IMG/VR virus record: IMGVR_UViG_3300018914_000001
Location: 1-64,000 of that record
Reading direction: 5' to 3' (one strand)
Length of the DNA: 64,000 nt
DNA from: a virus
Lineage: Duplodnaviria > Caudoviricetes
In this document: piece after piece, positions 19,194-41,855 of the stretch
Layout of the letters: every line of letters begins with the position of its first letter
How positions within the stretch are numbered: the first letter of the stretch is position 1
The notes under the pieces: model-generated
What the model saw: the letters and a program-made list of their open reading frames with translations, nothing else
The model's database searches: none
What the model was told of the DNA's origin: nothing
Made by a program: the position numbers and the translations under genes

Positions 19194-20015
19194 TTATCTC
19201 GCCCCCTTAACTTCTTCAATAATTTTGTGTTTAATGATGTCCTGAGAAAGCTTCAGAAATGTATTGCTGACAGAATCTTCCATCTTACTCTCATCAACCT
19301 TCTCCAAAAATGAATCTCTCAAATTCTTAGCAAGCCCCATCGTGTGATCGACCATCTGCGAAGCAACCTCTAAGGATGGGCGATTCAGCTTATATTGCAT
19401 AAGAGCTTCTATCCTGCTTTCATCTGTTAGACGAAGACACTCCTCTAGTCTTTTCCCATTGAGAATATAGTCTGTCATTACAAACCACAATCTCAAAATG
19501 TGATGAGCTTGTTTTCCATCATAGCCATGCTTCTCAATCTTATGGGCGATAGAAGGGTAGGGATGACACAGGGCTTTTTGCTTTTCACACATCATTCCAT
19601 ATATTGCTCTGACGAATTGCGCCGACAATGCTGACACAAGATCGTTACGCAAGCTAATGATGGTGTCGAATTCACGTTGAAACTTATTGTCTACAACATA
19701 GTAGTCTGTAAACAATGTTTCGATATATGCGGGATTGCCCTTCAACAGTGTTTGAAAATGCAGTCTGATGTCTTTCACATCACACTGCCCCCATTCTGTA
19801 TCGACCACTATAGAAACAGGCTTGCTGTCTGCTACAAGGTCATCCAGAGTAGGAATGATAATTGCCTTCATGTCGATGTCTGATTGGTACTCCTCAGTAT
19901 TGAGGTCTAACCCATAGTTTTGCGAACCATAGATGCAGATATATGCAACAGAGTACCCTTCAGATTCTAGGATGGATTTTTGTCTTACAAGGCTGTCCAT
20001 CAACATCTTCGACAT
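19194..20015 (-). CDS. Pol-beta-family nucleotidyltransferase (RNA-repair-associated type)
   Basis: YGSQNYGL...SDID motif, KGNP..IE.LF, YDGK...H..RL. Confidence 0.7.
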   Translation of the reverse strand: MSKMLMDSLVRQKSILESEGYSVAYICIYGSQNYGLDLNTEEYQSDIDMKAIIIPTLDDLVADSKPVSIVVDTEWGQCDVKDIRLHFQTLLKGNPAYIETLFTDYYVVDNKFQREFDTIISLRNDLVSALSAQFVRAIYGMMCEKQKALCHPYPSIAHKIEKHGYDGKQAHHILRLWFVMTDYILNGKRLEECLRLTDESRIEALMQYKLNRPSLEVASQMVDHTMGLAKNLRDSFLEKVDESKMEDSVSNTFLKLSQDIIKHKIIEEVKGAR

Positions 20016-20869
20016 ACTATTCAACTCCCTCTTTAGCAATCTGCCTTTTAACTTGCATTCTCTCAATAATAGGCATCCTGATTGGACTGCTCTTGCTTCT
20101 TCTCTTTGCGCGGGAAGACAAGGAACAGCCAACGCAGATCGACTTTCCAAAAGCGATTGAAGAATGCGCTGATTACAGCCCAGATGCTGACTGCAAGGTT
20201 GATCGCAGGAACCAATATAAAAATCAGTTGAGCGCGAGCTTCCTCTTTCGTTAGACGTGTTTTTACCTTGACAGACTCAGAGCTACCCTTAACCCGCTCC
20301 CATTCGTAACCATCATCGTTTTCAGGCTCCAGATAAACTTCAATAACCATGAGAACCCAACTGATTACGATGGAAACTCCCCAAAATTTTAGAAAACCTC
20401 CAAGGCTGATTCCCCAAAATGTCCATTCTAACATTTCTTATCACCATTCTTTCTTTGAGTTTGAATAGTTAAAACAGTTTTTTCTTGATAAGAATAAATC
20501 TTGTTTAGCTTCTTAATAAACTTCTCCCATCTGTTCATTGTCAGCCCTCTTTCTACGTTTTCTCTTCTCCTTGATTTCATCCTTTTCAGAGATACCTAGT
20601 TTCGCAAAGAGTTCTTTCTGCTCTCTGCTTCCATCTAAGACTCTAAACTGATAACCAAGGACTCTCTGGTGCATGGGGTACAGTGGAGCGTAGAATGTTA
20701 CCATTGGCTCCAGTGGAATCTTCACCCTAGTATTGTCTGTTACAACAATTAACGTATCAGGCTCACCTTCCTCTACACTTTTCCATCTCCAGAAGCATTG
20801 TCTAATTTGCATGTTGCATCACCTACGCTTGTTGGCTTCCTCCTCCATCCAAGCGGTCAAAGGTTTTAC

Positions 20870-26278: not shown

Positions 26279-26983
26279 TTACTTTACTTCTTTGATTTGT
26301 ATATCGCAACAGTCATCTTTCTTGCGAGACTTGACTTTACCAATCAGCACCACAACAGCCGCGAATGCAAGCGGGATTATCCACTTCACAAAACCGTAGT
26401 CAGTGATAACCTGACTCATGTAATCTTCGGCAAGAATCATCTTCCCAGCCGCCCAACCAAGCAGAGCAGAGCCAATGTAAATGATGATGGGAAATTTGGA
26501 AATTGCCTTTTGAATCATACTGGAACCCCATACCATGATGGGCACAGAGAGAATCAGTCCAAAGATTACCAATGCGAAGCTGTGTTCCCCAGCGCTATTC
26601 GCCGCACCAGCTACAGCAAAAACGTTATCGAGAGACAGTGTAATGTCTGCTACAAGAATCGTTCCAACCGCACCCCAAAACGTTGTTTTTTGCTCAACGT
26701 GAGAACCTTCACTCTCTTGGTTGTCCAAGAGAAGTTTTACAGCAATATACAGCAGAAGTGCCGCACCAATCGTTTGGAGATACGGAATTGCCATTAACCA
26801 TACAGCCAAAAGGGTGAAAATGACTCGAAAAACAACCGCCCCAATTGTTCCATAAATGATTGCCTTTTTCTTTTCTGCCTCAGGTAGTTTTCGGCTGGCA
26901 AGGGCAATAACCACTGCATTATCACCACTCAAAATCAGATCGAGAATGATGATTGCCAACAAAGCGTACAAAATATCCAACAT
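26279..26983 (-). CDS. TerC-family (YjbE-like) membrane protein
   Basis: LSGDNAVVIALA and ADITLSLDNV motifs; multiple TM helices. Confidence 0.9.
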   Translation of the reverse strand: MLDILYALLAIIILDLILSGDNAVVIALASRKLPEAEKKKAIIYGTIGAVVFRVIFTLLAVWLMAIPYLQTIGAALLLYIAVKLLLDNQESEGSHVEQKTTFWGAVGTILVADITLSLDNVFAVAGAANSAGEHSFALVIFGLILSVPIMVWGSSMIQKAISKFPIIIYIGSALLGWAAGKMILAEDYMSQVITDYGFVKWIIPLAFAAVVVLIGKVKSRKKDDCCDIQIKEVK

Positions 26984-27092
26984 TTATCTATCCCCTTATG
27001 ATAGTTTTTGAGGTAGAAGGAGCGTTAAGCTCCCCCACCAGTGTTACCATTGCCAGTATTCTTCTTAGGCGGTCGTGCAAGGTTGACTTTCA

Positions 27093-27770
27093 TTACGCAC
27101 TCAGCCCCACAAGGCGGCACAGACCAGCAAGACCATCGTTGAAGCCTTGCCCAATTGCTTCAAACTTCCAGTCGCCGTTGTGCTTGTACAGGCGACCAGC
27201 GACAACAGCCGTTTGAGTGGAGAAATCTTCTCCAAGGTCAAAGTTCACAAGCTTGTTGTTCGTGTTGTCAGCGTCAACAACTCGAATGAACGCATCGTTG
27301 ACTTGTCCAAACGTCAGTTGAACAGGAAGCGGATTGCCGTTTTCGTCTTCGTTGTGGATGGTTACGCAGAACAAGATGGAATCAACGTCAGCGGGCATCT
27401 TGTCGAAGTTGACGTATACAGTTTCGTCAGCTTCACCAATGCCGCCAGCGGAACCAGTACGTTCATCGCCAGTGTGACGTACAGCACCAGATTCATGTTC
27501 AAGATTGCTGTAGAAGATCATGTTTTTCGGAGCCATGCCGCCGTGGGATAATTTTACCCAATCATTTGGGCCTTGCTTGACTTGACCATACGGATTTTGA
27601 GTGGTTTTGAAAGAGCTGTCCAACATGAATGCCGTTACGTCAAGATCATGCTTCACACCATCGAAAACTTGCGCAGACCATCCAAGTTCAACCATAACAG
27701 CCTTCAAGGTTGTACCTTTAGTGAGGTCTACCTTTTGACCTTTAGAGAGGTTTACGGAAAATTGAGACAT
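27093..27770 (-). CDS. terD: TerD-family stress protein
   Basis: LSKGQKVDLTK, GW, DLD, HTGDERTG, FGQV, WKFEAIGQG. Confidence 0.9.
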   Translation of the reverse strand: MSQFSVNLSKGQKVDLTKGTTLKAVMVELGWSAQVFDGVKHDLDVTAFMLDSSFKTTQNPYGQVKQGPNDWVKLSHGGMAPKNMIFYSNLEHESGAVRHTGDERTGSAGGIGEADETVYVNFDKMPADVDSILFCVTIHNEDENGNPLPVQLTFGQVNDAFIRVVDADNTNNKLVNFDLGEDFSTQTAVVAGRLYKHNGDWKFEAIGQGFNDGLAGLCRLVGLSA

Positions 27771-29228: not shown

Positions 29229-29266
29229 CTGTTTCATCCTCCAATAATTTCGTGATTTGTAAAAAC

Positions 29267-29319
29267 GAGGCACATTTGTCCACTATAACCATAGCATATG
29301 TAATTGCTGTACGCGCCTC
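29267..29319 (-). ncRNA. ACAGCA-stem RNA #1
   Basis: GAGGCGC-GT-ACAGCAA...GTGCCTC terminal helix. Confidence 0.6.
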
Positions 29320-29323
29320 TAAA

Positions 29324-29397
29324 TGGAGCGAGTAAAGGGAATCGAACCCTTGCCGCCAGAGTGGAAGTCTAGCATTCTACCGTTAAAATATACTCGC
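29324..29397 (-). tRNA. tRNA-Gly (TCC)
   Basis: GCG...CGC-T-CCA, loop CT-TCC-AC. Confidence 0.85.
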
Positions 29398-29459
29398 ATA
29401 TCCTGCTGGGCTATCTGTGCCAAGACACCCAGCAGAAGGAGGTTTGATAAGTTGAAAAA

Positions 29460-29534
29460 TGGTACGCCCTACTGGATTCGAACCAGTGGCTCCCTGATTA
29501 AAAGTCAGGTACTCTACCGCTGAGTTAAGAGCGC
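29460..29534 (-). tRNA. tRNA-Lys (TTT)
   Basis: CCTGA-CTTTTAA-TCAGG, ACCA end. Confidence 0.9.
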
Positions 29535-29609
29535 ATATCTGGCTTTACCTAGCAAAGCAAGCGGTTCTTTGCCGAAGAGAAGCAAGTTTTACTCTTTCTT
29601 TAAAGGTAT

Positions 29610-29736
29610 TGGTGGGGAGAGAAGGATTCGAACCAACAACCCTCAGTGTTCACCTGTTGGATAAATTGCTGTACGTGACTCTTGTTAACAAGTCACATTC
29701 CATTGACTGATGCTCTGCCAATTGAGCTATCTCCCC
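29610..29736 (-). ncRNA. ACAGCA RNA #2: CCA-ended tRNA body with the module inserted in the anticodon loop
   Basis: GGGGAGA/TCTCCCC-ACCA, D arm, TCAGT/ACTGA stem enclosing GTGACT..AGTCAC-GT-ACAGCAA. Confidence 0.65.
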
Positions 29737-29742
29737 AAGAAC

Positions 29743-29816
29743 TGGTCTTCTGGTTGGATTCGAACCAACGACACAGGAGCAACATGCCCCATCATCTACC
29801 GCTGAGTTACAGAAGA
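29743..29816 (-). tRNA. Atypical tRNA-like gene (TGT/Thr-like loop, non-canonical)
   Basis: TCTTCTG/CAGAAGA-CCA and an intact T arm; poor D arm, loop lacks U33. Confidence 0.45.
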
Positions 29817-29825
29817 TATATACAC

Positions 29826-29942
29826 TAGGCGCGATCAAGTTTTTGCAGAAGTAAGGATTCGAACCTCAGACCTCATGATTATCAGTCATGCGCTCTACCA
29901 ACTGAGCTACTTCAGCGACTTTAAAACTGCTGTTCACGCCTA
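29826..29942 (-). ncRNA. ACAGCA RNA #3 enclosing a complete CCA-less tRNA-Ile (GAT) at 29844-29916
   Basis: TAGGCGT-GA-ACAGCA...[tRNA-Ile cloverleaf]...GCGCCTA. Confidence 0.7.
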
Positions 29943-29954
29943 ATTTTAAAATAA

Positions 29955-30079
29955 TGGTGGGCGGTGCGGGAATCGAACCCACTCCTTTTTCTTTGACATG
30001 GAAAATTTGCTTTTTGGTTGGATTGCTGTGAGAGTCTAACTAGACTCTATAAGCTTAATGCGCCATACACCAACCGCCC
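29955..30079 (-). ncRNA. ACAGCA RNA #4: CCA-ended tRNA body with the module replacing the anticodon arm
   Basis: GGGCGGT/ACCGCCC-ACCA, T arm, internal AGAGTCT..AGACTCT-C-ACAGCAA. Confidence 0.65.
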
Positions 30080-30083
30080 ATTA

Positions 30084-30159
30084 TGGCGTACCCTACAGGA
30101 CTCGAACCTGTGACCCACCGCTTAGAAGGCGGTTGCTCTATCCACTGAGCTAAGGATAC
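30084..30159 (-). tRNA. tRNA-Arg (TCT)
   Basis: Canonical cloverleaf, CT-TCT-AA, GCCA end. Confidence 0.9.
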
Positions 30160-30167
30160 ATTATTAC

Positions 30168-30260
30168 AAGGCACTAACTTTTGCTCCCAAGTGAGCATTT
30201 ACCAGTCTGTGGCGGTAAATTTGGATTCGAACCAATAAAATTACTTGCTGTAAGTGCCTT
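30168..30260 (-). ncRNA. ACAGCA RNA #5: YrlA-like circularly permuted tRNA mimic
   Basis: AAGGCACT-T-ACAGCAA, then T arm (TTGG-TTCGAAT-CCAA), looped acceptor-like stem (ATTTACC-GCCACAGACT-GGTAAAT), D-like arm (GCTC-ACTTGG-GAGC), closing AGTGCCTT. Confidence 0.7.
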
Positions 30261-30267
30261 CTCTTGC

Positions 30268-30296
30268 ATTCTAACAATAATCGGAGGATTTGTCAA
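30268..30296 (-). promoter_or_regulatory. SigA-type promoter directly upstream of the YrlA-like RNA
   Basis: TTGACA AATCCTCCGATTATTGT TAGAAT. Confidence 0.8.
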
Positions 30297-30314
30297 CCTT
30301 TTTGTTAGATTTTT

Positions 30315-30437
30315 TGGTAGCCTGTAGAGGAATCGAACCTCTGATACCGCCTCCTGATGGTTAGCGAAAATTGCTGTGAAAGTCTAACTACTAGACTCGT
30401 TTGCTTTTTCGGCGTGTTGCCACTACACTAACAGGCT
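30315..30437 (-). ncRNA. ACAGCA RNA #6: CCA-ended tRNA body with the module in the anticodon arm
   Basis: AGCCTGT/ACAGGCT-ACCA, D and T arms, internal GAGTCTA..TAGACTT-TC-ACAGCAA. Confidence 0.65.
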
Positions 30438-30441
30438 ATAT

Positions 30442-30519
30442 TGGCAGGGGCAATAGGAATCGAACCTACCTCTCGCCGCTTTGGAGGCGGCAACGCCTAG
30501 CCTTGGAACATGTGCCCCT
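30442..30519 (-). tRNA. tRNA-Trp (CCA)
   Basis: AGGGGCA/TGCCCCT-GCCA; GCCGC-CTCCAAA-GCGGC; irregular D arm. Confidence 0.75.
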
Positions 30520-30560
30520 GTATTTGTGAGGGAATTTTCATCCCCTCACTTCTTGATTAT

Positions 30561-30589
30561 ATTCTAGCATTTGCTAGAGATAAAGTCAA
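30561..30589 (-). promoter_or_regulatory. SigA-type promoter for the tRNA/RNA run
   Basis: TTGACT-17-TAGAAT with extended -10 TG. Confidence 0.65.
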
Positions 30590-30844: not shown

Positions 30845-32347
30845 TTAGACAGTGACTTGTGCGTAACGATCAGCATTCAAAACTTCCAGCATCAGATCAT
30901 AAGCAGACAGGTTAGTACCAGCCAGCAGATTGCGGAAGATCGAAGGAGATGCACCAGAAACAAGCTGTACGCCGTTGTCCGTCATCGTAACAGGGAATTG
31001 ATCGTTACGAGCGTTGACATTCCAGAATACCAGTTTAGGCATTTCGTACCCTGCCGCATGATATTCACTGCGGATAGTCTGGAATAACGTTTTGCTTTTG
31101 GATGCTCCGCGATCAGCAGAATCGAACTCCATATCAGAGACGATAAAAATAACCCCGATCATTTCATTCTGCGGAATATTATGCTTTTTCGCGGTGTTCA
31201 AAATCATGTCAAATACAGCCTTTACATTGGTGTTCATCTCCCAATGTGCGCGGTACATGTTGGTGACTTTCTCATGCAGGGTTTTCCCCTGAATCTTAAC
31301 CAGTTGCGGACGATTAGAGAAGGTCATAAAGTGGTCTTTGTAGACAGCACTTTTATTGCGTTCAGCCATGTACATAGCCAGAGAGATAGACACATCAAGC
31401 GGTCTGATAGAGCTATGATAGCTTGTTGCGGTCATAGAACCAGAAACATCAGCTACAACCATGCCGTTGACAGCATTGTCGCCCATGTAGTCAGGCAGAG
31501 CCTTCCACATCTCGTCAACAGTCACATCGTTACGCTGGAATGCTTTCAGAACCAACTCGTAAGGGTATAGAGTCGAAGCATTAATCTTCTTCTCGCCCTT
31601 TTGCAGAGAGTCCAAGAACGCTTGGTAACGTTCAGGAGTGTGACGCTTGAAGGCTTCTCTGTATTGCAAACCAGCTTTAGAAGGCAGTTTATCGAACTGA
31701 ATTTCCTCCCAGCGGTTTTGGGACATCAGAGTTTCGAGCAGATTAATCGCACTACGCTTTTTCGCAAGTGCTTTGCGGTACTGCTCTTCGGACAGCCCAA
31801 GATATTTTGCAGTACGCTTTGCGTATGCAATCTTCTGACGCTTTTCAGGAGTCAGATTACGCTTGTGCTTAACCCCATCTTTCCCTTTTTTTAGGGAAGG
31901 GAAGTTGATAGAATGGAGCCACTTTGCCATCAAGGAAGGCTTGTCCCAATTCTCTTTGATAAGAGTCAGAACGTCTTGCTCCAGTCGAGTGTCGAACAGA
32001 GCGTAGATGTCATCCCAACGTCCATACTCTTCGAACAGGTGGAGATTCTTTTTGAGAACGTCAGCGTAAGGCTGATTCATTCCCATATATCGAACGATCA
32101 CGCGGAACAGTCTGCGTTCACCTTGACCACCACGAATGTCGCGGAAGTAGAAGAGTGCCTTCAGTGCCAGTAGTGCATCTTCAGAGAATGCTTTTGTGAA
32201 AGCTCTGATGATGGATTGCTCGTCACGTTGACGCATTGCACCGCCAGTAGCAAAGAAGTCCAGTACATCACTCTTTGTAGTACGATGAGCGAGAGCGCCA
32301 TTCTCAGTGTGCGCGAAGTTAGTTGCATTTTTCAGGTGTTCCAACAT
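30845..32347 (-). CDS. DUF2828-family protein (helical N-terminus plus C-terminal vWA; Ro60/TROVE-like architecture)
   Basis: TENGA, RDIRGGQGER, YGRWDD, AKW, LYPYE, DVSGSM (MIDAS), SDMEFD, VFWN, SGASP motifs. Confidence 0.85.
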   Translation of the reverse strand: MLEHLKNATNFAHTENGALAHRTTKSDVLDFFATGGAMRQRDEQSIIRAFTKAFSEDALLALKALFYFRDIRGGQGERRLFRVIVRYMGMNQPYADVLKKNLHLFEEYGRWDDIYALFDTRLEQDVLTLIKENWDKPSLMAKWLHSINFPSLKKGKDGVKHKRNLTPEKRQKIAYAKRTAKYLGLSEEQYRKALAKKRSAINLLETLMSQNRWEEIQFDKLPSKAGLQYREAFKRHTPERYQAFLDSLQKGEKKINASTLYPYELVLKAFQRNDVTVDEMWKALPDYMGDNAVNGMVVADVSGSMTATSYHSSIRPLDVSISLAMYMAERNKSAVYKDHFMTFSNRPQLVKIQGKTLHEKVTNMYRAHWEMNTNVKAVFDMILNTAKKHNIPQNEMIGVIFIVSDMEFDSADRGASKSKTLFQTIRSEYHAAGYEMPKLVFWNVNARNDQFPVTMTDNGVQLVSGASPSIFRNLLAGTNLSAYDLMLEVLNADRYAQVTV

Positions 32348-32383
32348 TAAAATCATCTCCTTGTTTTCTAATTGGAATCCTGC

Positions 32384-32479: not shown

Positions 32480-32569
32480 TAGGCACAATTCTTGGGGAAT
32501 TGAACCCCTGAATTTCCTTGGAAGGGAAATTTGCATCCACGCAGTAGTTGTGTTTGCTGTATGTGCCTA
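32480..32569 (-). ncRNA. ACAGCA RNA #8 with D-like arm, Gly(TCC) anticodon arm and T arm
   Basis: TAGGCACA-T-ACAGCAA...AATTTCC-CTTCCAA-GGAAATT, GGGG-TTCAATT-CCCC...TGTGCCTA. Confidence 0.65.
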
Positions 32570-35709: not shown

Positions 35710-36162
35710 TTAGGTCACATGTGACCATAATTTGTATCTTCGTATTGCTGATATAGTTGAATGATGAACCCCATATTTTAATGCCAAGGAAGTATTCGTA
35801 CTTACCTTATCACTTCTGATTGCTCGAACGTCATCCTCTGTTAGTGTAGATTGAGGATTCTTGTTACCTTTCGTTGAACGATCACGTTCAACCATATCAT
35901 GCATATTTTGAACATGTGTTCCTAGTTCAAGATGTTCAGGATTAATGCACATTGGGTTGTCACATTTATGACGAACTAACATGTTATCAGGTATTTCACC
36001 AAAACATTGTTCGTAAATATGCCTGTGCATATAAGTTTTAATACGTATGCCTTTAATCATCTGTTGATGTAAGATATAGCCATCTTTCTTACGCGAGGCA
36101 TGAGATGTACAGATAAAGCAGTTATTCTCATCAATAACGAACTCTACTGGCTTTCTACTCAT
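35710..36162 (-). mobile_element. Free-standing HNH homing endonuclease
   Basis: HR..Y, VRHKCDNPMCINPEHLELGT..QN..D, C-terminal HTH. Confidence 0.85.
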
Positions 36163-36187
36163 CTCATTCACCTCCTTTGAAAATCTG

Positions 36188-36264
36188 TGGAGGCGCATGG
36201 GGGAATCGAACCCTCCGAATCGTAGATTGAAAGTCTACTGTGTTATCCACTTCACCAATGCGCC
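36188..36264 (-). tRNA. tRNA-Glu (TTC)
   Basis: GTAGA-CTTTCAA-TCTAC, CCA end. Confidence 0.85.
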
Positions 36265-37149: not shown

Positions 37150-37566
37150 TCAACTCTCCTCGTTTCCTTTTTTCTCGTTACATCGGGTACACATAGGCTG
37201 GTAGTTTTCAATTACGTCCAGCCCCCCTTTAGAACGTGGAATAATATGGTCTTTGGTCATTAAAACCTCATTTCCATCTTCATCCAACGCATAGAGGTTA
37301 AAGTGATAATTGCGATCATACTCAGAGTGCTTCTCCTTGGCAAAGAAGGCTCCTTTGATACCGCATGTTACGCAATCGCAACCCTTTTCCTTGAAGACAT
37401 ACAAGCGTTGAGATGACATCTTGATCTCGTCACCATCAAAGTTGTAACGAAGCTTCTCGTAGCGAGTTTTACCATCCACAATAGACTTGACATGTCCACG
37501 TGGACGATCAGGGCAAACAATATGAGGCAATACAGCTTCAAGCGGATAGATGCTTTTGCGAATCAT
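37150..37566 (-). CDS. HNH endonuclease
   Basis: CVTCG, TKDHIIPRSKGG...NYQPMCTRCNEKKG. Confidence 0.85.
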   Translation of the reverse strand: MIRKSIYPLEAVLPHIVCPDRPRGHVKSIVDGKTRYEKLRYNFDGDEIKMSSQRLYVFKEKGCDCVTCGIKGAFFAKEKHSEYDRNYHFNLYALDEDGNEVLMTKDHIIPRSKGGLDVIENYQPMCTRCNEKKGNEES

Positions 37567-37667: not shown

Positions 37668-38708
37668 TTATTTTGCACTAGTATCTGCTTCGTGAAGAAA
37701 CATCAGCTTTTGGAACGTTTGCTCTCCTACAAAGTTTTTGAATTTTTCGACTGCTTTTTCTTTCACGTCTTTATATTGCATCAAACGCATATGATATTGA
37801 ACAAGTTCAACAACACGCAATATGGTGTCGATATCATAGCCCCATCTTTGCAGAACAAGAGCCGCAATTTGAGCAGAAACATTCTCATGCCCAATAAAAT
37901 TTGCATAGCGACCATTAAATTCCTTGGTGTAGCCTTTACCTACATCATGGAACAGAGCCGCAAGCATCATCTCTGTTTTGCCCTCAGACATGCCAAAGAC
38001 CTGTTCATAATGCTCATAGGTATAACTCATGGCATGATAGATGTGTCTGGAGACAGAAAAGGCATGGTATTTGCTGTCCTGCGGAAGATTGATACATGGC
38101 TTAAACTCAGGCGCGAGAGTGAGAAGCCAATTAAAGAATTTGTCGTGTTCAATAGCCCCAAATTGAGAAAGAGTAGCATCAACAGCATGACGCCAATCGA
38201 CACGAATTGGGTCTACAAACTTCATAAATTTAATCAAGTCCCACCCCTCAGAATATGTAGGAACTTGCAATCCTTTATACATTTTTCTGATGACTTCTTC
38301 GCCCACAGAACGATCACGAATGCTATCTCTGAAAATACACTTTCCAACAGACGTGTTGAAGTACACAGCGGTAGCCGCAAGGTGATGCTTTGCCATTTCC
38401 TTCAGCAGAGAAGTGCGCCGCTTAGCAGAGGTGTTGGTAGCATCATAAATTACGTTGATGCCTTTCTGAAGGTTTTCTTTAACACGACTATGCAAAAGTT
38501 CAAAGACTTTAGCATGAGATTCGCCTACAGTCTCGCAATTGGGCAGAAGTTGCGTAGCCTCATCTCCTGACAACTCTTTCCGAATATCATCAGAGGAAAG
38601 CCATACAGTATTTTCTTTATTCTCTTGCATGTACCGCTTTGCCCATGTGGTTTTACCAGAAGCAGGAAGACCTACCAAAACGATCAATTCACCTTTATTC
38701 GACATCAT
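37668..38708 (-). CDS. Polynucleotide kinase (P-loop) fused to an HD domain
   Basis: GLPASGKTT, SSDDIR, DATN..R; C-terminal H...HDVGK...HE..SA...HM...AD. Confidence 0.85.
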   Translation of the reverse strand: MMSNKGELIVLVGLPASGKTTWAKRYMQENKENTVWLSSDDIRKELSGDEATQLLPNCETVGESHAKVFELLHSRVKENLQKGINVIYDATNTSAKRRTSLLKEMAKHHLAATAVYFNTSVGKCIFRDSIRDRSVGEEVIRKMYKGLQVPTYSEGWDLIKFMKFVDPIRVDWRHAVDATLSQFGAIEHDKFFNWLLTLAPEFKPCINLPQDSKYHAFSVSRHIYHAMSYTYEHYEQVFGMSEGKTEMMLAALFHDVGKGYTKEFNGRYANFIGHENVSAQIAALVLQRWGYDIDTILRVVELVQYHMRLMQYKDVKEKAVEKFKNFVGEQTFQKLMFLHEADTSAK

Positions 38709-39515
38709 CAATCGCTCCTCCGTCATAATGGTAATCAAGGTAATAATAGTAATCGTAACATCCTCTGCATCCATCAGCAAATTCTCCACGTGAAAATGTT
38801 GCTGAAGTTCCATCTGTAAATTTCAGTGTTACAGATTCTGCTTCGATACCGCCAGCGTCAGTAATTTCATCAAGAGCTACATCTTCAATCGTCTTACCCT
38901 TCATCTTCTGAAGTCTTTGAACTATGTAGTCTATCTGCCTCTGACGTTTTTGTTTCTCTTGCTCTTTTTTAACACGTTCTGCTTCTTGCTGTGCTAAGGC
39001 TCTCTCCCTAGATTTTTTAGCAAGCTCCCTTTCATTGCAAGCACCGCATTTGCCAAACCTCTGACTTTCGAATGTTGACATTGCGCTACCGCAATTACAA
39101 AATGATATGCCATTCAAACTACTAATCACTCTCCTTTCTTACACCTACTTTCTCCCATACAGATTTTCCAAGCTCATAACCAAGCCTAAAATCCTCAATC
39201 TTCAGAACAAGTTGACAGCTTTGTTCGCTATCGCCGTCAAACCCACAAATAACTCCACGCACAAAATCCTGTCCAAATTCCCCCATCGCAACATGAATAA
39301 TATCAACATTGACTCCCTTTCTACGAATATCAAATTTCTTTTCATAGTAGGCTCCAAGGGCACAAGCACAGCCATTTCTCAGAGTTAAACGTTGGCGTGG
39401 AGTCAGTCCAGTCTCCTCGTATGCTTGAACAATTTCTTCAACAGTTGGAAAAGTCACTTTATGCTTGTTCATTTTTCTCCACCCTTTCGTTGTAGGATTA
39501 GCAAGTTCAGCGAGA

Positions 39516-40694
39516 TCAGTTTTTTCTCGTATCAAAGTACCATTTTGCGGCTGTTTTTCGAATTTCAAGTTCAGTTTCTTTGTTGTCATACATGAGGAAT
39601 GCAAGACCACGAACGTATTTGCCATCTTCATTTTGCGTTTGCTCCATGACAAATTTGGCGTAATCCTTTCTCGACTGGCACTCTTCGCTCAGAGAATAAG
39701 TCCAGATATAGCCAGCCGCACATTCAAACTTTGCAGAAACAGAGCAGAGCAAATCTTGAAGCTCCTCAATTTCTGCGCGAAACTCTTCTGGCACAGCAGT
39801 AATAAGATCATTAAGTTTGCCTTCAACCCACGATTGAACTATTCGCTTTTTGGAGAGTCCATAGGCAATTCTATGGACTTTCATGTATTCGTCACCCTTT
39901 ACTTTCAAGCGAAGCACCGCACCGTCATCAAGCACCCAACGAAGTACGAAACCTTCCTCAGAGTAATGAAGTGTTTTGGCTTTAGCTACAATCTCCTCAA
40001 TTGTGCCTTCAACCTTTTTAGTTACTGGCAGGTTGAAAGATGAACCAAGAGCACTGAGGGTGCTGTAGCCAAAGTCAAAACCTGTAAATCTATTTGTTGC
40101 ACCAATTAATACTAAATCGGTAAAATCATATGGTACAACAACCTTTGTTTCAGGGTGAATAATTTCGCACATAAGAGTGAGAGCGATATATGTCCCACTA
40201 CGAAGGAAAAGGCTGTTAGAACGACTGTATTTATCATCCCAAATCTGTTGTGCAATTTGCGATTGAGGAGAGGTGAAACTGCCGCGAGTAGCCCAACGAA
40301 TCTTTCCATCCAGCCTGTACATGATGCCTAGGGAACCATCTTGTTTAATAGTGATTTCAGGCTTTGGCGCAATTTTTACTCCCGCAATATAACCATTGTT
40401 GGTTATCTTAGTGCGCGGAATCATTGCGTCAAAAGCAGGATTTTCGCCATAGTTGAAAAACTTGGGAAAAGGTCTAGCAAGAACTTCACCAGTTTTTTCG
40501 TTAAGAATCAATCCTCTACATTGAATGTTTATGCCGTTCCATTGGCGTGAATAAACAAGTTCAGGTGTATAGTTTAAAAGAATAACATCAGAGTTTTCAG
40601 GATGCCGAATGAGATTGACGTTACCCTTCTCCACTTCTATCATGTACTGTTCTTTGGTTGGTATAGTGCCATTGAGTTTCATTGATACAATCAC
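39516..40694 (-). CDS. T4 Rnl1-like RNA ligase
   Basis: CRGLI, PFPKFFN, KQDGSLG (motif I), EGFV, KVK. Confidence 0.88.
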   Translation of the reverse strand: MIVSMKLNGTIPTKEQYMIEVEKGNVNLIRHPENSDVILLNYTPELVYSRQWNGINIQCRGLILNEKTGEVLARPFPKFFNYGENPAFDAMIPRTKITNNGYIAGVKIAPKPEITIKQDGSLGIMYRLDGKIRWATRGSFTSPQSQIAQQIWDDKYSRSNSLFLRSGTYIALTLMCEIIHPETKVVVPYDFTDLVLIGATNRFTGFDFGYSTLSALGSSFNLPVTKKVEGTIEEIVAKAKTLHYSEEGFVLRWVLDDGAVLRLKVKGDEYMKVHRIAYGLSKKRIVQSWVEGKLNDLITAVPEEFRAEIEELQDLLCSVSAKFECAAGYIWTYSLSEECQSRKDYAKFVMEQTQNEDGKYVRGLAFLMYDNKETELEIRKTAAKWYFDTRKN

Positions 40695-41060: not shown

Positions 41061-41855
41061 TTACTTTACAATGCCTTTAGCACGTGCATTCTTCAACCAT
41101 TGAGGAAACTTGTACAACATCTTTTGGTATAGTTCGTCCTCACTCATTTTCAAGAAGTCATTCATAGAGAAAAAGCCTACATTGTCCAGCTTGCTTGCTT
41201 GCTGAAGGAAGTTGAATCCAAAGCCTATTCCTACGAATTGAAAGAAGATAGGAAGGTCTTTGGTAGCTTCCAACAGGCGCATAGCCTTTTCCCTGTCTTG
41301 ATTTTCTCCATCTGTGACAATCATTACATATGCAGGTTCTTCGACAGTTTCAATGGCGGTAGAGCCATCTTGCTTTTTGTTAAATCCAAAGATTTTTCCA
41401 ATCCCACCAAGGATACTGTTAAGTACGTTTTTAGCGGAGGCGGGTAAGATGCCAGTGCTGGCGTACTTGTCGATTACAGCCTGAATGGATGGTGCATATG
41501 CAGTTCCTCCATCAGTGCCATATCTTCTGTACAGATTGTCAGCGTAACCATAGAAGTCATCTTTACTCAGTTCGCCAATGTCAACGACAGAATGGTTCAG
41601 CAAGAACATGTCGATTGCTCCATTGTCATCAAAGCGAACACCAAGAGCCAGAAGCTTGTCTATAATAGCTTGTACAGTTCCATTGCGGAACATCCCATCC
41701 ATAGAAGGAGAGTAATCAGTGACAAGAGCTACTTTTGCCTTCTGTCCATTCAATCCGCAAACCTCAACAGCTTTTTGTGCAACCTTTTGAAGATTAACAA
41801 ACTGTTGCTGTGCTTCGGCCTTACCAAGATTTACTTTATAAAAAGGTTGAGACAT
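41061..41855 (-). CDS. vWA-domain protein (TerF-associated type)
   Basis: DYSPSM, GGTAYAP, TDGE, PIFFQFVGIG, LDNVGFF. Confidence 0.8.
   Translation of the reverse strand: MSQPFYKVNLGKAEAQQQFVNLQKVAQKAVEVCGLNGQKAKVALVTDYSPSMDGMFRNGTVQAIIDKLLALGVRFDDNGAIDMFLLNHSVVDIGELSKDDFYGYADNLYRRYGTDGGTAYAPSIQAVIDKYASTGILPASAKNVLNSILGGIGKIFGFNKKQDGSTAIETVEEPAYVMIVTDGENQDREKAMRLLEATKDLPIFFQFVGIGFGFNFLQQASKLDNVGFFSMNDFLKMSEDELYQKMLYKFPQWLKNARAKGIVK

Follow-up and report, generated by a model that had tools for sequence, protein, structure and literature searches.

The stretch of DNA considered here (the window) covers the initial 64 kb of a phage genome (IMG/VR record IMGVR_UViG_3300018914_000001) that is complete at 158,514 bp and has direct terminal repeats. 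The sequence is of metagenomic origin. Among the sequencing runs listed as containing positions 29250–30560 there is no RNA run; the four listed are DNA runs from a single biocrust metagenome study, and three of them are possible sources of this DNA. The minus strand of the window carries most of the genes, and at 26–36.5 kb there is a transfer RNA (tRNA) cluster in which 15 ordinary tRNA genes are arranged around the gene for a 503-amino-acid DUF2828/DUF7788 protein. The subject of this report is a set of three longer, tRNA-shaped elements within the cluster, referred to here as A, B and C, each of which carries an additional module that ends in the motif ACAGCAA. The elements, their parts and the protein gene are as follows.

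29610–29736, minus strand: element A, a 127-nt tRNA-shaped RNA with acceptor stem GGGGAGA/TCTCCCC, D arm, T arm and ACCA end
29666–29698, minus strand: module of A, a 9-bp hairpin (29698–29673) followed by ACAGCAA (29672–29666)
29955–30079, minus strand: element B, a 125-nt tRNA-shaped RNA with acceptor stem GGGCGGT/ACCGCCC, short D arm, module, anticodon-like arm, T arm and ACCA
29988–30004, minus strand: anticodon-like arm of B, stem TTTCC/AGAAA (four pairs and a C-A mismatch) with the 7-nt loop AUGUCAA
30023–30048, minus strand: module of B, a 7-bp hairpin followed by ACAGCAA (30029–30023)
30315–30437, minus strand: element C, a 123-nt tRNA-shaped RNA with acceptor stem AGCCTGT/ACAGGCT, D arm, module, T arm AGAGG/CCTCT and ACCA
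30371–30398, minus strand: module of C, a 7-bp hairpin, UC, then ACAGCAA (30377–30371)
30845–32356, minus strand: gene for the 503-amino-acid protein, with DUF7788 (Pfam, E = 5e-55) and DUF2828 (E = 2e-34)

A sequence-only reading of this DNA had proposed three CCA-ended tRNA bodies here, and the boundaries it gave were correct. All seven acceptor pairs form in each element, followed by a discriminator A and then an encoded CCA, and each has the T loop GGTTCGA(A/T)TCC. The T stem is regular in B and C and has two U-U mismatches in A in the Rfam alignment, and the D loop of B is shortened. The features of a tRNA cloverleaf (7-bp acceptor, D arm, T arm and elbow nucleotides) are present in all three, the arms follow one another in the order of a normal tRNA, and the acceptor stem is open. 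The module consists of a 7–9-bp hairpin, a spacer of 0–2 nt and ACAGCAA, and the net extra length beyond a tRNA is ~47–51 nt. The same reading held that a hairpin with ACAGCAA replaces the anticodon region. The insert is there, but “replaces” is not the right word, as the insertion point of the module is the junction of D arm and anticodon arm. In A, the module is part of a 58-nt loop closed by the 5-bp anticodon stem (TCAGT/ACTGA), and U33 is absent. In B, the anticodon-like arm lies 3′ of the module, ~62 nt away from the D arm; its loop has U33, GUC, A37 and A38, and a 5-nt variable loop follows the arm. In C, a loop-like AUCAGGA follows the module with only two local pairs, and the module is flanked by CGAAAA and TTTTCG, which appear able to pair. 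None of the three has a canonical anticodon arm, that is, a 5-bp stem contiguous with the D arm and a 7-nt loop with U33 and R37.

The three elements begin 4–8 nt from the preceding tRNA or tRNA-like gene and lie 0.4–1.1 kb downstream of the DUF2828/DUF7788 gene, on the same strand. A covariance model scan of the whole 158.5-kb genome, with the model described below, finds exactly three tRNA-bodied elements. When their bodies are compared with the 29 tRNAs of the phage, the best agreement is only 39 of 55 positions, too low to identify a parent tRNA. Between A and a module-wrapped tRNA-Ile (see below) there is also an odd tRNA-like gene (29745–29816, minus strand) with two D-stem mismatches, a non-standard anticodon loop and no encoded CCA; it scores 35.7 bits with the Rfam tRNA model, and ARAGORN is silent on it.

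How do annotation tools read these elements? ARAGORN lists 29 tRNAs in the whole phage, of which 28 cover 19 amino acids (Val is missing) and 25 have an encoded CCA. The set includes Asp-GUC, Ser-UGA and Cys-GCA. The 29th call has a four-letter anticodon (atgg); it lies at genome positions 103826–103900 (plus strand), in a second tRNA cluster that is separated from the DUF2828 gene by 70 kb, with free module RNAs nearby. By default, ARAGORN misses A, B and C. When introns are allowed, it reports them with exactly the ends given above, as Ser-tga, Cys-aca and Cys-gca with introns at 32–33. The Rfam tRNA model (RF00005, threshold 29 bits) scores A at 49.3 bits with a 57-nt insert and B at 28.2 bits, and lists no match for C. 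Similar difficulties are seen in other phages. The Aeromonas phages Aeh1 and PX29 have two tRNA-bodied copies each (e.g., L006 10025–10137 and 10157–10275). A homolog is annotated in GenBank as tRNA-Val in Aeh1 and as tRNA-Leu in PX29, and the ARAGORN “anticodons” of four Aeromonas phage copies disagree (Arg-acg, SeC-tca, Val-cac and Cys-gca). The expectation of the earlier reading that standard tools would mislabel such genes is therefore borne out: ARAGORN misses them or calls intron-containing tRNAs, Rfam passes A only, and GenBank records label relatives as tRNAs.

Intron-containing tRNAs are well known: group I introns interrupt anticodon loops in bacteria, and bulge-helix-bulge introns occur in archaea and eukaryotes. 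A, B and C resemble such genes in being interrupted near the anticodon, and this is how ARAGORN reports them when introns are allowed. They differ in that the insert is ~50 nt long, far below group I size, and lies 5′ of position 33 at a point that is apparently variable among relatives. They also differ in that the insert is the most conserved part and occurs outside tRNAs as well, and in that the proposed anticodons of orthologs disagree. For example, three loci of the comparison set introduced below (L072, L076 and L077) are called Pyl-cta, Gln-ttg and Stop-tta. The intron positions that ARAGORN assigns among orthologs range over 30–40 and are non-canonical, and in A no single excision that ARAGORN found yields U33. 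No Rfam intron family matched the region, although bulge-helix-bulge geometry was not explicitly searched for. At A, B, C and the free elements described below, Rfam gives only tRNAs and weak YrlA matches. When the region and element B were used as nucleotide queries against a phage collection, only tRNA fragments were returned. The module RNAs are undescribed in Rfam 15 and in the literature searched, a search that the supplementary list of phage hits in PMC4201824 lay outside.

Relatives of A, B and C were sought in 95 viral-contig loci, which were fetched via the DUF2828 protein (30%–48% identity) and include some near-duplicates. ARAGORN with introns allowed made 74 calls in the window and these loci, which gave 58 distinct sequences with the motif at positions 45–70. 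In a MAFFT alignment of 54 of these, the C, G and C of the motif are invariant, and U8, G18, G19 and the T loop (GTTCRA) are conserved. RNAalifold on this alignment recovers the acceptor, D, insert-hairpin and T helices, with compensatory changes in 22 of 23 pairs. A covariance model built from the alignment gives 70 matches of at least 58.7 bits across the window and the 95 loci, and the next match is an ordinary tRNA at 48.1 bits. A, C and B score 86.4, 81.2 and 58.7 bits; the other 67 matches lie outside the window, in 30 of the 95 loci, and every one is on the strand of the DUF2828 gene. The link to DUF2828 that the sequence-only reading had drawn thus holds at the level of genes. A model made from 51 relatives in other phages, with zero window sequences, still places A, C and B as the top three in the window (82.8, 73.9 and 52.1 bits; E values from 5e-17 to 5e-10), with the best ordinary tRNA at 45.9 bits. 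By a looser criterion, there are 68 elements in 31 loci; 46 of the 68 are within 1 kb of the gene, and the modal count is three per locus.

The helices are supported by covariation. Across 62 distinct sequences, 96.6% of cells are paired, compared with 64.0% after shuffling and 42%–51% in slid controls, and there are 484 double-sided changes versus 130 in shuffles; none of 500 shuffles reaches the observed value for pairing or for changes. All four helices covary, including the insert hairpin, in which all seven pairs show compensatory changes. The motif has the form nCnGCAA with the C, G and C invariant, and is exactly ACAGCAA in 45 of 62 copies; this core does not vary among phages of Proteobacteria, Firmicutes and Actinobacteria. 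Random decay of the insert at homologous loci had been named beforehand as an outcome that would count against the earlier reading; what homologous loci show instead is covariation and an invariant motif core. A, B and C are members of a conserved structured RNA family, not decayed tRNAs.

Some members of the family retain an anticodon-like arm. A local stem of at least three pairs with a 7-nt loop, U33 and R37 occurs in 12 of 62 members, compared with a mean of 1.5 and a maximum of 6 in shuffles. Under looser rules, applied by eye, about as many members again have an anticodon-like arm, and the remaining members mostly keep just adenines resembling A37 and A38, 5′ of the 3′ strand. The description of these RNAs as non-decoding is weakened for B by its own arm. 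In the loops that are kept, the frame of Y32, U33, A37 and A38 is conserved and the middle triplet varies between close relatives, with GUU commonest; examples are CTGTTAA (L076 and L077), CTTCTAA (L072), ATTGTAA, ATTCTAA, ATGTTAA and ATTGGGG.

A different kind of unusual gene is seen in Aeromonas T4-like phages, just upstream of two module-bearing RNAs. These are tRNA-like genes of ~120 nt (L005 9723–9842, L006 9890–10008, L007 9488–9606 and L015 9638–9757) with a perfect acceptor stem, a normal Ala-type anticodon arm and two tandem T-arm-like hairpins. ARAGORN calls them either a 75-nt tRNA-Ala or an “intron” tRNA.

The module is not confined to tRNA bodies. It also occurs in a free form, in which the helix is closed by the two ends of the RNA rather than capped by a loop. 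Free forms were sought as ACAGCA(A/G) preceded by a helix strand that pairs 40–170 nt downstream. This search gave 13 matches on the minus strand of the window and none on the plus strand, compared with 0–4 in each of 20 shuffles, and 9 of the 13 are inside the tRNA cluster. Those considered individually, together with two in the second tRNA cluster, are listed here.

36483–36420, 35701–35648, 35447–35382 and 35035–34981, minus strand: short free forms
32480–32569, minus strand: free form whose interior has two hairpins, one like an anticodon arm (7-nt loop CUUCCAA) and one like a T arm; z-score −4.04
32454–32385 and 29319–29267, minus strand: other free forms
30168–30260, minus strand: free form with a permuted tRNA-like interior, consisting of P1 AAGGCACU, U, ACAGCAA, T arm, capped 8-bp stem, D-arm-like hairpin and AGUGCCUU
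29826–29942, minus strand: free form enclosing a whole tRNA-Ile(GAU), with the module helix and ACAGCAG
104861–104937 and 104944–105038 of the genome: free forms in the second tRNA cluster (104.9–105.0 kb)

Free forms are 3–12 nt from the tRNAs with which they are interleaved, and the interior of some is only a short hairpin. The wrapped tRNA-Ile(GAU) is one of the four phage tRNAs without an encoded CCA; a second tRNA-Ile(GAU), which does have CCA, lies at genome positions 104136–104210. The element at 30260–30168 has a z-score of −2.85 and aligns to YrlA over its full length, although weakly (16 bits). The free and the tRNA-bodied forms have a common consensus, a-G-a-Y-R-Y followed by 2 nt and ACAGCAA, in which the first six bases are paired. 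An even closer relationship is seen in phage Bas63, where one element (L108 20783–20906) opens with a module strand and ACAGCAA, continues with an anticodon-like arm, a T arm, a capped acceptor and a D arm, and closes with the other module strand. Circular permutation of this order gives exactly that of B, which leads from the acceptor through the D arm, the capped module with its ACAGCAA, the anticodon-like arm and the T arm back to the acceptor. The earlier proposal that the helix-ACAGCA junction is circularly permuted between the two kinds of element is upheld by both observations. Because its acceptor is capped, the permuted Bas63 RNA cannot be charged. A role for helix-ACAGCAA as a phage promoter or single-stranded DNA hairpin promoter was also considered and rejected: the arms are 40–170 nt apart and covary, and a sigma-70 promoter precedes one element.

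Free forms are abundant in other phages. In the 95 loci, ACAGCAR occurs 478 times on the strand of the DUF2828 gene and 135 times on the other. With a closing helix of 7 bp, the counts are 200 and 27, compared with 20–31 in five shuffles, which puts ~170 above chance. At least one helix-closed free element is present in 69 of the 95 loci, and either form in 79. The median distance of free forms to the DUF2828 gene is ~665 nt.

The module adjoins the DUF2828 gene in all five cultured phages examined: SUSP2, MrDarsey, LP-125, OhShagHennessy and Bas63. In the Escherichia coli phage SUSP2 it lies beside the gene. Bacillus phage MrDarsey (Tsamsavirus) has five modules in or after a tRNA array just upstream of the gene. 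Listeria phage LP-125 has three directly upstream, with RtcB-like and RNA ligase genes downstream. In mycobacteriophage OhShagHennessy (cluster L), a 52-nt free form (L107 7462–7513) and a 118-nt weak match to the model (L107 7600–7717; 36.5 bits) occupy the gap after the gene. In Bas63, gp130 is a homolog of the window protein (36% identity, E = 7e-95) encoded directly upstream of a tRNA cluster, and the candidates are unannotated elements between tRNAs (L108 20242–20408, 20695–20762 and 20783–20906). The association was also examined in reverse, by scanning viral contigs with AAGACACNNACAGCAA alone and examining 80 of the 111 resulting stretches. A DUF2828 homolog is present in 14 of the 80, a proportion diluted by chance matches and short stretches; homolog and motif share a strand in every one of the 14 and are less than 700 nt apart in 10 of them. 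In the other 66 stretches, many matches must be chance, and the motif is <3 kb from the end of the stretch in 53.

What kind of protein does this gene encode? In a Pfam search at E ≤ 0.001, the 503-amino-acid protein matches DUF7788 and DUF2828 only, and TROVE is absent. A sequence search of the PDB with the single sequence gave zero matches, and a profile gave only a weak match to a vWA domain (8s05, E = 0.0017) and chance-level matches. An AlphaFold2 model made with a 35-sequence alignment has a pLDDT of 87.3 and a pTM of 0.87 (a single-sequence attempt reached a pLDDT of 38.8). When this model was compared with the PDB by Foldseek, the top 11 matches were all Ro60/TROVE structures, aligned over the full length (E values from 5e-9 to 2e-5, TM scores of 0.43–0.59, ~510–575 columns). 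They comprise Xenopus and human Ro60, Deinococcus Rsr and the Ro60 of Thermus phage phiLo; plain vWA domains rank next. The predicted fold is a helical-repeat ring with a vWA domain that contains a DxSxS MIDAS motif, and the MIDAS-type residues D303, S305 and S307 are invariant in 35 homologs. The DUF2828/DUF7788 protein is thus predicted to have a Ro60-like fold. Homologs are present in at least 702 of 50,697 phage records and are encoded by at least 551 viral contigs, and some are annotated as “Ro-like RNA binding protein” or “RNA-binding protein.” DUF2828 genes usually adjoin tRNA clusters.

YrlA-type Y RNAs, partners of bacterial Ro60-type proteins, are a close comparison. According to the accessible text of Chen et al. 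2014 (PMC4201824), Ro60 chiefly contacts a conserved motif, GNCGAA(N0-1)G, on the 5′ strand of the terminal stem of YrlA, and the remainder of YrlA mimics a tRNA. The window shares with the YrlA/Ro60-Rsr system (RF02553; PMC4201824, as far as its accessible text describes it) a small RNA beside the gene for a ring protein of Ro60 fold, on the same strand and in several copies per locus. In both, a tRNA-like domain with T arm, D arm and elbow is joined to a protein-binding stem (putative in the window) whose 5′ strand carries a conserved motif that is single-stranded or bulged. The free element at 30260–30168 and the Bas63 element at L108 20783–20906 even have the YrlA order, in which T arm, capped acceptor-like stem and D arm lie within the binding stem. 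There are clear differences, however. The protein belongs to DUF2828/DUF7788, not to TROVE, and the motif is ACAGCAA after a-G-a-Y-R-Y rather than GNCGAA(N)G; GNCGAA is found in only 1 of 12 window elements, namely in C, outside the module. Unlike YrlA, A, B and C are unpermuted, with an open, CCA-bearing acceptor and a capped module helix, and some copies in the family keep an anticodon-like arm. No window element reaches the Rfam threshold for YrlA (69 bits); the best scores are 16–18.6 bits.

Two phage systems are also comparable. Thermus phage phiLo encodes a Ro60-fold protein with two stem-bulge-stem RNAs, Yrl1 and Yrl2, just upstream of its gene (PMC12135203, accessible text). The window resembles it in combining a phage Ro60-fold protein with small RNA genes, and the phiLo structures 9kop and 9l5y are among the best fold matches of the window protein. 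The two proteins are, however, only 15%–16% identical in the structural alignment, and unlike the window RNAs, the phiLo RNAs as presented in that text have a CGAA motif and no tRNA body. Bas63 gp130 has been noted for its Ro60-like look and is reported to counter the Ppl defence, and the authors of the PhageMaP preprint guess, in its accessible text, that some annotated tRNAs might be Y RNAs (bioRxiv 10.1101/2024.10.10.617714). That text names neither an RNA nor a motif. In the stretch of Bas63 examined, the free and permuted forms occur, while the window has the tRNA-bodied form as well.

What might A, B and C do? We infer their expression, processing, protein binding, non-decoding nature and cellular role as follows. 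They are probably tRNA-shaped, CCA-ended, unpermuted counterparts of YrlA-type Y RNAs that bind the Ro60-like phage protein. Such an RNA would retain the tRNA scaffold of acceptor, D arm and T arm, complete with the typical elbow nucleotides and, in this phage, with an encoded CCA. A putative protein-binding module would be inserted where the D arm meets the anticodon arm, in the form of a 7–9-bp helix whose 3′ strand is a-G-a-Y-R-Y, then ~2 nt, then a single-stranded ACAGCAA. The RNAs would be co-transcribed with genuine tRNAs from sigma-70-type promoters and, since they lie only 4–8 nt from their neighbours, are probably released by tRNA-processing enzymes; the earlier reading had proposed maturation by RNase P. 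The module is most likely a docking site for the Ro60-like ring of the DUF2828/DUF7788 protein, whose gene is just upstream, and the RNAs may then tether this ring to something that recognises the shape of a tRNA. Because genes for an Rnl1-type ligase and a kinase/HD protein are nearby, the purpose could be surveillance or repair of tRNAs, or a counter to tRNA-directed host defence.

Several observations weigh against the proposal that A, B and C are Y RNA counterparts. The 95 loci were gathered through DUF2828, so another co-encoded partner may be the binder, and with no TROVE or Ro60 match at the sequence level, the connection to Ro60 rests on the predicted fold. No tRNA-bodied copy lies within ~7 kb in 65 of the 95 DUF2828 loci, and neither form is seen in 16. 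In the leave-out test, B is only 6 bits above the best ordinary tRNA, and the outcome of the reverse test (14 of 80) is diluted by chance matches and by the shortness of stretches. The anticodon-like arms of B and of 12 of 62 relatives leave charging and decoding possible, and CCA is encoded in all three window copies, as it is in 25 of the 29 phage tRNAs.

Might the elements simply be working, chargeable tRNAs with an extra arm, which decode either in a five-armed form or after the insert is excised and the halves are rejoined by the kinase/phosphatase and the Rnl1-type ligase? The intact 7-bp acceptors, encoded CCA and conserved elbow would fit this well, as would the loop AUGUCAA of B on its 4-bp stem with a normal 5-nt variable loop, the excess of anticodon-like arms in the family (12 of 62 versus 1.5 in shuffles), a loop frame of C-U...A-A that is held while the middle triplet changes (CTGTTAA in L076/L077 versus CTTCTAA in L072), and the ligase and kinase/HD genes nearby. 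Yet A lacks U33, about two-thirds of the family have no anticodon-like loop, and the phage already has tRNA-Asp(GUC), tRNA-Ser(UGA) and tRNA-Cys(GCA). Excision in particular is hard to reconcile with the non-canonical intron positions (30–40), with anticodons that are inconsistent among orthologs, and with an insertion point that, read by eye, appears variable (before the anticodon stem, in its 5′ strand or in the loop) and is ill-suited to one splicing geometry; to our knowledge, no bacterial or phage mechanism excises a protein-free insert of ~50 nt at such positions. The insert is, moreover, the most conserved part of the RNA, and the module is also carried by free RNAs and by the permuted Bas63 tRNA with its sealed, unchargeable acceptor. 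We therefore regard this explanation as quite unlikely. A related idea is that the tRNA-bodied forms are dual-purpose, that is, chargeable, anticodon-bearing scaffolds with a handle for the Ro60-like ring, which would serve as sentinels or bait where host enzymes attack the anticodon loops of tRNAs. To damaged tRNAs these RNAs would bring either the kinase/phosphatase together with the Rnl1-type ligase or an enzyme that degrades them. This is speculative, and we think it unlikely. If true, it would describe a widespread counter-defence particle in Felix O1-like, P100-like, Tsamsa-like, KVP40-like and cluster L phages, and would account for the ability of Bas63 gp130 to counter host defence.

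A further explanation gives the DUF2828 protein no part at all: helix-ACAGCAA would serve phage tRNA operons as a signal for processing, stability or transcription (e.g., a site for a nuclease or another RNA-binding protein), and its link to DUF2828 mere co-location. Free forms interleaved with tRNAs at 3–12 nt, one of which wraps an entire tRNA-Ile, are what such a signal might look like; DUF2828 genes are commonly beside tRNA clusters, and in this phage the second tRNA cluster, at a distance of 70 kb from the gene, contains two free forms. The modules do not always keep company with tRNAs, however. In LP-125 and in another locus (L001), the DUF2828 gene is directly preceded by three free forms and no tRNA intervenes, and in the mycobacteriophage they follow the gene in a 13.4-kb stretch where no tRNA is annotated. 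Half of the free forms are within ~665 nt of the gene, and only 7 nt separate the free form at 30260 from the end of a strong promoter, which fits a discrete primary transcript and not a cleavage signal. The predicted fold of the protein is, in addition, one known for binding RNA with a stem and a single strand (PMC4201824, accessible text). An operon signal thus seems very unlikely. Decaying pseudo-tRNAs with random or mobile inserts in the anticodon region are extremely improbable. The two mismatches in the T stem of A, the short D loop of B and the score of B under the Rfam tRNA threshold could be taken as signs of decay, but four helices, including the insert hairpin, show compensatory changes, the motif core is invariant across phages, and copy number and placement relative to the gene are constant. 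Nor are the family members recent copies of one sequence, with a mean column identity of 51%.

If the helix-ACAGCAA RNAs are ligands of the Ro60-like protein, there are several implications. A large class of phage proteins now annotated as “hypothetical” or “RNA-binding” would acquire an RNA partner and a testable site, and dozens of misannotated or unannotated genes in phage tRNA clusters would be identified. The principle of Ro60 and its Y RNAs would extend to a second protein family with a new motif and a new topology, in which a CCA-ended tRNA carries a protein handle. The anti-Ppl phenotype of Bas63 gp130 would acquire a concrete RNA candidate. Carriers of DUF2828 include well-studied and therapeutic phage groups of E. 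coli, Salmonella, Listeria, Staphylococcus, Enterococcus, Campylobacter, Vibrio, Bacillus and Mycobacterium.

The remaining features of the window that bear on these elements are two promoters within the cluster and three genes for enzymes.

30561–30589, minus strand: sigma-70-type promoter, TTGACT-17-TAGAAT with TG, upstream of tRNA-Trp and element C
30268–30296, minus strand: sigma-70-type promoter, TTGACA-17-TAGAAT with TG, near-consensus (11 of 12 matches); from its end to the first base of the free element at 30260 is 7 nt
39516–40694, minus strand: gene for a T4 Rnl1-type RNA ligase (PF09511, E = 1.7e-15)
37668–38813, minus strand: gene for a P-loop kinase with an HD phosphohydrolase domain, a possible polynucleotide kinase/phosphatase (AAA_33, E = 2.2e-24; HD, E = 2.2e-8)
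19194–20150, in the window: gene for an RlaP-family nucleotidyltransferase

The window further encodes a YqeY-like protein, TerD, TerC and a TerF-type vWA protein. The region with the Ro-like gene and the tRNAs is flanked by the TerC, TerD and TerF-type vWA genes, at 26279–27770 and 41061–41855 (minus strand), and genes for HNH endonucleases lie within the cluster at 35710–36198 and 37150–37566. In one locus of the comparison set (L009 1848–2415), a ROOL RNA (RF03087, 197 bits) lies within the tRNA cluster, upstream of the DUF2828 gene.

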